NCBI RefSeq assembly: GCF_024223415.1
Contig: NZ_CP100500.1
Direction: 5' to 3' (one strand)
Origin: Escherichia coli
GTDB taxonomy: Bacteria; Pseudomonadota; Gammaproteobacteria; Enterobacterales; Enterobacteriaceae
DNA length: 64,000 nt
The translations under genes and the position numbers were made by a program. Below the pieces are notes generated by a model. The model worked only from the letters and a program-made list of their open reading frames with translations. It was not told the origin of the DNA and made no database searches. Of this stretch, positions 4,022-7,147 are shown in pieces (the stretch's first letter is position 1; every line of letters starts with the position of its first letter).

Positions 4022-4036
4022 GTTTGGCATAGCATG

Positions 4037-4058
4037 AAACATAGCAAAGGCTATGTTT
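4037..4058 (+). promoter_or_regulatory. MntR operator in the mntH promoter
   Basis: Near-perfect palindrome AAACATAGC-AAA-GGCTATGTTT immediately upstream of the mntH RBS, matching the known MntR box. Confidence 0.65.
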
Positions 4059-4061
4059 TAG

Positions 4062-5309
<1,248 letters not shown>

Positions 5310-5336
5310 TTCAACTGGTGTCGCATCTGGCACCAT

Positions 5337-5428
<92 letters not shown>

Positions 5429-5449
5429 GTGCTCCATTGGCGAATGTGT

Positions 5450-5776
5450 TTAATGGCGGTGTCCATGTCCGCGGCCTTTTCCGCGATGATCGTCACGATC
5501 GCGCCAGCCTTCACGATAGCCACGCTCATATGCTTTACGCTTATCCCAGCCACGATGGTAGCCATTATCATGACGCCACCAGCGGTTTTTACGCCATTCA
5601 TAATTGCGATGCCAGTAGTCACGGTCGCGCCAGTGACCACCGTCCCAGTAATTACCGTAATGATCGCGATCGCCAATTTGTAATTTGATTGATGGCAGTA
5701 GGGTGATTTCGCCTGCGTTTGCTGCAAGCGGGGTAAATGCCATCAGGGCGGCCGCCAGAAACAGTGACCTGAACAT
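5450..5776 (-). CDS. ypeC: DUF2502 small secreted protein YpeC
   Basis: 108-aa ORF with a signal peptide ([21 protein letters not shown]) and a basic, Trp/Arg/Asp/His-rich low-complexity C-terminus, as in YpeC. Confidence 0.8.
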
Positions 5777-5890
5777 TGTTATTCTCCTTCACGATCGAAG
5801 CCGTCAGCGGCCTGTTAACGCAATATTACGGGGAGGTAAAGCCCCGTATCATCGCCATAACTCTTAAATCATAAAGGAGAGCATTTTTTG

Positions 5891-7147
5891 CTAAACGTTA
5901 TCGTGGGGTGGCTGTTGCTTCGGACGATTGACCATCATCATCGGCTTACCTGCTAATAACAGCCATGCCGGAAGCATGACGATACAGAGCAGCGGTAGCA
6001 ATGTGGTATTGGGTACAACGACTGCCGCCATAAAAAGACTTAACCAGCCATCGCGTGTTACCACCAGCACGATGCCGAGAATAGCGCAGGAAACGGTTAT
6101 TGCCGCTGGTACGGCGGGAACGTGCTCATGCAGCATCAACCCTAATGCCACGCCGACAAACACTGCCGGGAAGATTCGCCCACCGCGAAAGCCACTGGCG
6201 GCAGCAACGACCAGGGCGGCAAGTTTAATTACCGCCAGCAAAAAGTAATCGCTGGTGCTGAAAGCCTGATTTGCCACCATCTGCTGCATCTCATCCAGCC
6301 CTTTAAACAGCGAAACTGGTCCACCAATAACCCCCAGAATACCGAGAATAAATCCACCAATACCCAGCACGAGCACCGGATTTTTCATTTGATGCATCAT
6401 CGCGTGCAACCGTGGTAAGCACCATACGGCGACCATCCCTGCTGCGATGGCAATCGCCGCGACAATTGCACCGCTGAGAATATCGGTCATTTCCATCTGT
6501 CCGTAATGCGCAATGGGCAATGAAAAATGAGGATGGAAAAATAATCCGGTAGTAAGTGCACCAGCTGCTGCCGCCATTAACGGCGCAAAAAGACGATCCC
6601 ATAGCGGAACTTCACTACTGCCATTTAAGGTTTGCGAAAATATCAACGCCGCCGCAACAGGTGTACCAAACAGCGCGCCGATGGTTCCGGCAGAGGCTAA
6701 AATAGTCCACTCCATTCGGTTGACGCGCGGTAACAGACGAGCGCCAATGGCAACCGCAAGGGCGATATTGACGGTCATGATCGGATGTTCCGGCCCCAGG
6801 CTGACGCCGCCAGCAAGACCGAGAATTAATGCTACGATAAGTCCTGGTAGCGCAGAGGGCGGAACCGGTGCGCCGATCAGCGGTTCACAGGCGGGGTCTG
6901 GTCCGGCATGACCCTGGCTGAAACGGATAACCAACCCCACCGCAATACCCGTTAGCGTTAATACACCGATGATCCAGAGAGGTGAATCCTGTGCTATTCC
7001 CAGAGTTCCCGGCAGTCGTTGCCAGAGCAAATTCTGTAATACCGAGGCGATTTTCATCACCACAATCAGAATAAGACTGGACGCAATCCCAATTGCCACG
7101 GCGGGGAGCGATAATAACAACATGGTTCTGGCTCGCGGATGGAGCAT
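5891..7147 (-). CDS. yfeO: Putative ion channel/transporter YfeO (ClC-like family)
   Basis: 418-aa polytopic membrane ORF between ypeC and glk, in the conserved position of yfeO. Confidence 0.85.

Follow-up and report, generated by a model that had tools for sequence, protein, structure and literature searches.

ypeC of Escherichia coli encodes a small, predicted periplasmic DUF2502 protein of the Rcs and MarA/SoxS stress responses

Beside the metal transporter gene mntH, the chromosome of E. coli carries a short gene, ypeC, whose product begins with a signal peptide and continues as a chain rich in Trp, Arg, Asp, His and Tyr. The locus thus raises the question of what such a protein binds, and whether the transporter next door has anything to do with it. 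An earlier note, made from the sequence of this locus, proposed affinity for metals or nucleic acids and pointed to the proximity of mntH. Here we analyse ypeC within a stretch of E. coli DNA of 64,000 nucleotides, referred to below as the window. In our reading, ypeC encodes a small protein of the DUF2502 family that is exported by the Sec route to the periplasm and made as part of the programmes that respond to envelope damage and to antibiotic and oxidant stress. The parts of this explanation that concern the gene, its localisation and its regulation are held with high confidence; what the protein binds is a more tentative matter, and it is weighed below against the alternatives.

The identity of the gene is clear. 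The translation quoted earlier, for which no strand was stated, matches exactly a minus-strand ORF of 108 codons, and the name ypeC agrees with RefSeq, which annotates positions 5450-5776 as WP_000490072.1, ‘DUF2502 domain-containing protein YpeC’ (UniProt P64542), with mntH converging from one side and yfeO on the other. The span of 5429-5776 assigned before is right at the start codon end, but at the other end it runs 21 nt past the stop codon and touches the edge of a REP element. A 601-nt query around ypeC has matches of 100% identity in several E. coli chromosomes. ypeC belongs to the core genes of E. coli and is subject to strong purifying selection: it is present at a coverage of at least 80% in 5389 of 5426 complete E. 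coli genomes, and its dN/dS is 0.03–0.11 over its whole length, residues 71–98 included (orthologs from 12 genera). Long ORFs in alternative frames also run over the gene; they were rejected as genes of their own, because it is the ypeC frame that is under this selection. The database ‘proteins’ in these frames are frameshifted assemblies. The possibility that ypeC is a mobile gene was also rejected, because its plasmid and phage matches are in essence pieces of chromosome that carry a plasmid label by mistake. ypeC is not new: it is annotated, assigned to DUF2502, paralogous to yaaX and documented as a member of the Mar/Sox and Rcs regulons. For a genome scan, an annotated core gene of this kind holds no surprise.

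The N-terminus of YpeC reads as that of a classical Sec substrate, in line with the signal peptide proposed earlier. Reading of the sequence gives an MFR n-region, a hydrophobic core and an A-N-A motif. A19 and A21 are invariant in the family alignment, the conserved mature N-terminus begins directly after them, and the pattern is kept in all 58 aligned DUF2502 members. Neither a Cys nor a twin-arginine motif is present in the signal region; as there is no Cys, there is no lipobox. Because of its signal peptide, YpeC is predicted to be exported by the Sec route and to reside in the periplasm.

The mature protein (87 residues) has an extreme composition. Trp, Arg, His, Asp and Tyr together make up 57% of it, versus a maximum of 27% among the 55 long ORFs of the window. 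Trp is enriched 6.0-fold (P = 6e-5), His 4.6-fold (P = 2e-4) and Arg 3.3-fold (P = 2e-5), and aliphatic residues amount to 8% versus about 36% expected (P = 1.5e-9). The GRAVY value is −2.14, the pI is about 10 and Gly accounts for 14–15% of the residues. The bias described in the earlier note is thus far beyond chance. The repeats it described are not seen: Tandem Repeats Finder returns no tandem repeat in the ypeC DNA, and the sole internal echo in the protein is WRDRD, at residues 49 and 91. The description of the mature part as a low-complexity tail is apt for the C-terminal third, which is predicted to be disordered, but not for residues ~22–72, which are conserved and predicted by AlphaFold2 to be folded. 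Across Enterobacteriaceae residues 22–98 are nearly invariant, and the last ~10 Gly/His/Arg/Lys residues alone vary in length.

YpeC matches the Pfam family PF10697 (DUF2502) with 85.4 bits versus a cut-off of 27 (E = 3e-24), its residues 23–106 covering profile positions 1–90 of 90. All 58 aligned relatives match DUF2502 too, and a Pfam scan of these 58 members at E ≤ 1 returns nothing besides it. Alignment of 56 clean members gives the signature i...Pg..l.iGdrD.rG.YWDG..WRd..wW..h. In YpeC the corresponding core, IGDRDxxGxYWDGxxWRDxxWW, occupies residues 34–55, after the signal peptide, as in DUF2502 proteins generally; G35, G41 and W44 are invariant in 58 of 58 sequences. In approximately 14 of the 56 members a second copy of the core unit lies 29 residues downstream, and the stretch YEWRKNRWW of YpeC aligns with this second copy.

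The family is narrow. A word-indexed search finds 278 relatives, nearly all of them enterobacterial, and an exhaustive profile search of 1.84 billion representatives finds 119 clusters, many of which are frameshifted assemblies. At the level of species (one genome per species) the ypeC gene occurs in 198 of 100,044, and the best 80 of these 198 are all Enterobacteriaceae. Distant DUF2502 members are found in Rouxiella, Brenneria, Serratia, Nissabacter and the betaproteobacterium Jeongeupia, and the core signature is kept as far out as Serratia, Brenneria, Rouxiella and a betaproteobacterium. The earlier statement that the function is unknown holds. Pfam offers only DUF2502, and an NCBIfam search with YpeC gives no match. 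In the PDB, a sequence search with the family profile has no match at E ≤ 1, and Foldseek with the YpeC model returns a single meaningless match (E = 7). As no structural neighbour is detectable there, nothing can be transferred to YpeC by homology. Likewise, no functional study of YpeC was found in the literature that mentions ypeC.

AlphaFold2 gives concordant models in two runs, one with 22 and one with 58 sequences. Their global score is moderate (pTM 0.38–0.46), with pLDDT of 80–90 for residues ~24–71 and below 50 for residues 73–108. The predicted fold opens with two strands at the N-terminus, followed by a YW-DGG-HW hairpin, a short helix and one more hairpin. Hence, mature YpeC is predicted to begin with a compact module of about 50 residues, built of beta-hairpins and rich in Trp, Tyr, Arg and Asp, and to continue as a disordered basic segment that ends in Gly and His. 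The segment ~71–98 is absent from YaaX and from the distant relatives. YaaX (b0005), the E. coli paralog, is 62% identical to YpeC over residues 2–66 and shares with it the signal peptide, the core and a His-rich tail; unlike YpeC, it has a Pro/His-rich tail in place of segment ~71–98.

The C-terminal tails of the 56 members cannot be aligned, and they are always His-rich (median 16%, range 5–40%), with (GH)n and HDHD runs among them. Their overall composition is 16.5% His, 16% Arg, 16% Gly, 10% Asp and 8% Pro, with Ile, Leu, Val and Met each below 1%. YpeC has such a His-rich, aliphatic-poor C-terminal tail as well. The net charge of the tails spans −9 to +11, which argues against a purely polycationic mechanism.

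Features of the ypeC locus, with positions in the window (the strand is that of the feature)
Feature	Position	Strand	Description and basis
ypeC coding sequence	5450..5776	-	108 codons and TAA stop at 5450-5452; ORF list, RefSeq, Pfam, dN/dS
Signal peptide, residues 1-21	5714..5776	-	Predicted signal peptidase I cleavage after A-N-A, before G22; read from sequence
DUF2502 core, residues 22-72	5561..5713	-	Predicted beta-hairpin, DRDxYG, Trp hairpin, short helix, second hairpin; AlphaFold2 and family signature
YpeC-specific conserved segment, residues 73-98	5483..5560	-	Predicted disordered (pLDDT <50); nearly invariant in Enterobacteriaceae, low dN/dS
Gly/His/Arg/Lys C-terminal tail, residues 99-108	5453..5482	-	Length-variable; indels and (GH)n expansions among orthologs
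Shine-Dalgarno AAGGAG within invariant block CGATCGTGAAGGAGA	5784..5789	-	Invariant in upstream alignments of 21-23 genera
Stem-loop AGGCCG-CTGA-CGGCTT	5798..5813	-	5' end of the 38-nt 5' UTR; begins 1 nt after the inferred transcription start
Inferred transcription start (C of AACAGG)	5814	-	Homology with the Salmonella ypeC Cappable-seq start (PMC10268841, Fig. S1)
-10 hexamer TAATAT	5823..5828	-	Nearly invariant in 23 genera; correct spacing from the inferred start
Conserved block GATTTA(A/G)GAGTT, GATTTAAGAGTT	5859..5870	-	About -56 to -45; 23 genera; candidate Rcs-responsive element, TAAGA half-site only
Marbox GCATTTTTTGCTAAA (MarA/SoxS site)	5881..5895	+	Reverse relative to ypeC, overlaps the yfeO stop codon; exact match unique in the window
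Two REP-type hairpins	5338-5367, 5392-5427		Between the convergent mntH and ypeC 3' ends; inverted repeats I4 and I2

The features upstream of the gene are those of a regulated transcript. A sigma-70 consensus scan upstream of ypeC finds no promoter, because the −35 element is poor; the promoter was located via the published marbox, the published start site and phylogenetic footprinting. ypeC is thus served by a sigma-70 promoter of its own, the weak −35 of which would fit an activator-dependent promoter. Over 23 genera the marbox, the GATTTA(A/G)GAGTT block, the −10 hexamer, the leader hairpin and the Shine-Dalgarno block travel with ypeC whatever gene lies upstream, yfeO in Escherichia and gpr elsewhere. 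In the leader stem-loop 79% of the cells are paired, with compensatory changes, versus 34–49% in slid controls (both helices counted together).

The marbox connects ypeC to MarA and SoxS. MarA ChIP-seq in E. coli H10407 reports gcattttttgctaaa as the site at ypeC, bound in vitro at 0.3 μM, and ypeC is also among the SoxS ChIP-exo targets (PMC5684230). The published 15-mer GCATTTTTTGCTAAA has one copy in the window, that given in the table. In Salmonella SoxS binds the same marbox sequence, and ypeC is in the list of class I promoters, with a Cappable-seq start site (PMC10268841, Fig. S1). A class I marbox is in reverse orientation, with its centre near −62 or −72. The ypeC marbox is oriented in this way, and its centre lies at −73 in Salmonella (published start) and at −74 in E. 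coli (start by homology). Hence, ypeC is a class I MarA/SoxS target that would be activated via a reverse marbox, the evidence in E. coli being that of binding. For YaaX no marbox is reported.

The second input is the Rcs phosphorelay, on which expression of ypeC strongly depends according to literature data. Upon inhibition of LolCDE ypeC is the 7th most induced gene (42- and 60-fold), together with osmB, bdm, wca, ivy and mliC (PMC5105897); spy, cpxP, osmY, osmC and otsAB are also co-induced with it. In an O157:H7 isolate with disrupted rcsB, ypeC is down 23.7-fold (PMC5343319). The induction by Rcs is shared by the paralog: yaaX is a member of the RcsB regulon, and both colicin M and the Lol inhibitor induce it. 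The Rcs response extends to Serratia marcescens, where the promoter of SMDB11_2817, a DUF2502 gene like ypeC, serves as an rcsB-dependent reporter and is up several log10 in a gumB mutant (PMC8470065). The earlier note, which missed the published MarA/SoxS and Rcs regulation, had named a lack of expression under any condition as the point that would speak against its reading; these published data show that ypeC is expressed.

The canonical RcsB homodimer box, TN(G/A)GAN4TC(T/C)NA (PMC7913699), is absent from the 224 nt upstream of ypeC, where matches are found only with 2 mismatches and at the rate of chance. Upstream of yaaX and of three distant homologs there is no match at ≤1 mismatch. Words of the TAAGA/TTAGAG type recur in front of yaaX and of the homologs in Brenneria and Serratia. 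As the box is absent, the Rcs control of ypeC could be indirect or use a partner protein.

On these grounds we propose the following role. YpeC would be non-enzymatic: no catalytic features are seen, and the protein would act by binding. The aromatic-rich module may dock onto an envelope component, such as peptidoglycan, LPS or another periplasmic glycan, or onto an envelope lipid, and the His/Asp/Arg-rich tail may bind protons or divalent cations. In this way YpeC would serve to buffer the periplasm, or to stabilise it, in cells with a compromised outer membrane or cell wall. The hairpin module is the conserved element of the family and therefore probably carries the specific interaction; binding of metal or protons by the His-rich tail is plausible, judging by its composition. 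Taken as a whole, the reading of YpeC as a non-enzymatic periplasmic binder in envelope stress is the best explanation and stands at about even chances. The specific mechanism, with the module on an envelope component and the tail on protons or cations, draws on composition and regulon membership and is tentative, somewhat below even. We also note that the Trp and Tyr residues, instead of offering a surface to a ligand, may simply be the core of a mini-domain with few aliphatics.

The module recalls Trp/Arg-rich cationic peptides and tryptophan zippers by its YWDGGHW stretch and high Trp and Arg content. In these peptides and designed zipper hairpins aromatic pairs flank a D-G or N-G turn, and the Trp and Arg contents are high. 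It is a resemblance only, as YpeC, unlike such peptides, has many Asp and Glu residues, is predicted to have a folded domain and a tail, would stay in the periplasm of its own producer, and is not known as an antimicrobial. A bolder extension, which we regard as doubtful, takes DUF2502 for a periplasmic mini-domain that has so far gone unrecognised and is an orphan in structure: a beta-hairpin unit of about 29 residues, similar to a Trp zipper and capable of tandem duplication, would bind one particular molecule of the envelope, be it peptidoglycan, LPS core or a periplasmic glycan, and, joined to a His-rich, metal- or pH-responsive tail, would make a dedicated effector of Rcs and Mar/Sox across Enterobacterales.

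Rcs and Mar/Sox are the main survival circuits of enteric bacteria against cell-wall antibiotics, cationic peptides, lysozyme and oxidants, and several of the genes that they induce most strongly, ypeC included, have no known function. To know what the DUF2502 module binds would account for a transcriptional output that is among the largest of Rcs, and a small binding fold of a new kind might come to light. With its marbox and candidate Rcs-responsive element, the ypeC promoter is already a natural dual stress reporter. New in this analysis are, on the side of the protein, the division of the chain into a folded core, a segment specific to YpeC and a His tail, the family signature with its duplication, and the narrow taxonomic range; on the side of the DNA, they are the promoter anatomy in window coordinates and the negative operator tests for RcsB, MntR and Fur.

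Among the alternatives, the one that survives best is possible though doubtful: YpeC could be a periplasmic metal buffer or metallochaperone acting independently of mntH, its tail binding Zn, Cu, Ni (or Mn), induced when a leaky envelope admits metals. His enrichment is the one property kept across the unalignable C-termini, reaching 40% in some of them, and in four cusS mutants yaaX changes in concert with zraP and the cus genes, which is a weak hint in the same direction. However, the searches for MntR and Fur sites reveal no metal-responsive operator upstream of ypeC, with no Fur consensus near the gene within 3 mismatches, and its known regulators are Rcs and MarA/SoxS. The part that defines the family is the Trp-rich core rather than the tail, and of the last 12 residues in the tail of the E. 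coli protein only 5 are His. Stress proteins of the ZraP/Spy/CpxP type and His-rich metal binders of the periplasm are, like YpeC, small, exported and induced by envelope stress, and they too may bind metal via His-rich segments. Unlike YpeC, they respond to other regulators and show no sequence or structural similarity to it: ZraP, Spy and CpxP form alpha-helical oligomers, while for the DUF2502 core a structure rich in beta-hairpins is predicted.

Next, YpeC might be a protectant of the hydrophilin or LEA type, hydrophilic, Gly-rich and largely disordered, giving the periplasm non-specific protection in osmotic or desiccation stress; we consider this unlikely. Hydrophilins are defined by more than 6% Gly and high hydrophilicity, and both apply to YpeC with the Gly content and GRAVY given above. 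The co-induction with osmB, osmY, osmC and otsAB would suit such a role. Against it stand the strong position-specific conservation, the duplication of the motif in relatives and the confidently predicted folded core, which is conserved and atypical for this class. Conservation, predicted fold and duplication point to a specific interaction rather than to bulk physicochemistry.

A partnership with MntH in manganese acquisition, for instance by concentrating periplasmic Mn2+, is very unlikely. The adjacency from which it starts is real and conserved: ypeC and mntH converge in nearly all Enterobacteriaceae sampled and also in Serratia proteamaculans, although the YpeC homolog there has diverged to 38% identity. 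An Asp/His-rich composition would suit Mn2+, and oxidative stress acts on both genes, though on ypeC via SoxS and on mntH via OxyR. However, the two genes are convergent and have separate promoters, with REP hairpins between their 3' ends. These hairpins give sub-threshold matches to Rfam naRNA4, which is REP-derived, and may act as a terminator or a stabiliser. The only MntR palindrome of the window lies at 4038-4057, in front of mntH. ypeC thus shows neither a metal-responsive operator nor co-transcription with mntH.

The adjacency also belongs to a larger syntenic block, yfeO...ipdC-gpr-ypeC><mntH-nupC, which is recorded as well in PMC5770404, and since the whole block is syntenic, the pairing of ypeC with mntH is not specific. 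The paralog lies in the context thrC-yaaX-yaaA, unrelated to metal transporters, and no recurring partner gene is found near the distant DUF2502 genes of Jeongeupia, Brenneria and another Serratia locus. As the paralog and the distant homologs are in such unrelated contexts, the position of ypeC gives little functional information. Of the earlier argument from proximity the conserved adjacency thus remains, but hardly its bearing on function, and we infer that YpeC is not functionally coupled to MntH.

It is equally improbable that YpeC inhibits, or serves as a decoy for, an agent that attacks the envelope, such as a lysozyme-type enzyme or cationic peptides. It would then act like the Rcs-induced periplasmic lysozyme inhibitors Ivy and MliC, whose compartment and regulon behaviour it shares, its gene being co-induced with ivy and mliC, and a small periplasmic protein induced by damage to the cell wall and the outer membrane would be well placed for such a task. 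However, YpeC has no homology to Ivy or MliC and no similarity of sequence or fold to any known inhibitor, and a basic protein would be an odd decoy for basic attackers. Finally, we give hardly any credence to a nucleic-acid-binding peptide or a spurious ORF: the basic, Arg/Trp/Tyr-rich composition does resemble RNA and DNA binders, but binding of nucleic acids, proposed in the earlier note, is unlikely for a protein exported by Sec, and the signal peptide, the purifying selection on the frame, the curated Pfam family and the strongly regulated transcript speak against both.

Some minor observations can be added. Weaker mentions of ypeC in the literature concern a modest induction after an acid shift, a place as a multi-stress hub and, in E. 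coli as well as in Klebsiella, a response to RP4 conjugation. Within the family, two core repeats are frequent in the Serratia homologs, and eight of the tails end in CPPGQAKKGxC.

In Escherichia the marbox of ypeC, the MarA/SoxS site at 5881-5895, overlaps the stop codon of the upstream gene yfeO (5891-5893). In most other genera (matched genomic loci L009-L082) yfeO is separated from ypeC by ipdC and gpr, and despite these intervening 3 kb or so the same promoter block lies directly 5' of ypeC there too. The core promoter of ypeC contains a conserved GC-rich hairpin, whose stem shows compensatory changes, for example AAAGC/GCTT in Salmonella and GGAGC/GCTCC in K. indica. The hairpin could terminate transcription of the upstream gene, or it could act as a regulatory DNA or RNA structure.

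A second conserved structure opens the ypeC leader, 1 nt past the inferred start site. In Raoultella its stem is retained and the loop is larger by about 22 nt. The stem-loop is followed by an invariant CGATCGTG, placed immediately 5' of the Shine-Dalgarno sequence. These features suggest a role in mRNA stabilisation or post-transcriptional control.

Structural features and overlapping reading frames around ypeC and mntH
Feature	Position	Strand	Remark
18-codon CDS (accession ending _418134935.1)	4034-4090	+	RefSeq annotation
REP-type palindrome pair, BIME-like unit	5294-5476; hairpins 5338-5367 and 5392-5427		gap between convergent mntH and ypeC 3' ends
Long alternative-frame/antisense ORFs	5368-5727 (-); 5429-5683 (+); 5437-5688 (+)		over ypeC
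Leader stem-loop and invariant block	5790-5813	-	within 38-nt ypeC leader
GC-rich hairpin TACGGGG-N8-CCCCGTA	5827-5848	-	between weak -35 and -10 of ypeC, upstream of start site

On the other side of ypeC, three matches to the REP-derived Rfam family naRNA4 fall in the gap towards mntH, all of them below the gathering score.

The long ORFs overlapping ypeC in other frames or antisense are a side effect of the gene's codon bias. Among the database 'homologs', many are frameshifted versions whose tails are T/A/I/V-rich. The cluster representatives P0180 and P0134 are YpeC/MntH chimeras, though the two genes lie on opposite strands, and are probably assembly artefacts. The E. coli ypeC sequence carried at 100% identity by a 398-nt contig labelled Rhizobium wenxiniae (L003) is almost certainly contamination.

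A distant DUF2502 subgroup (P0164, P0179, P0181, P0186, P0201, P0204, P0211 and P0214), with a member from the betaproteobacterium Jeongeupia, has in place of the His-rich end a Cys-bracketed CPPGQAKKG(N/R)C, a motif which suggests a disulfide loop.

We also note the position of the 18-codon CDS: its start lies within the promoter of mntH, it shares sequence with the MntR operator (4038-4057), and it extends into the start codon of mntH at 4071.
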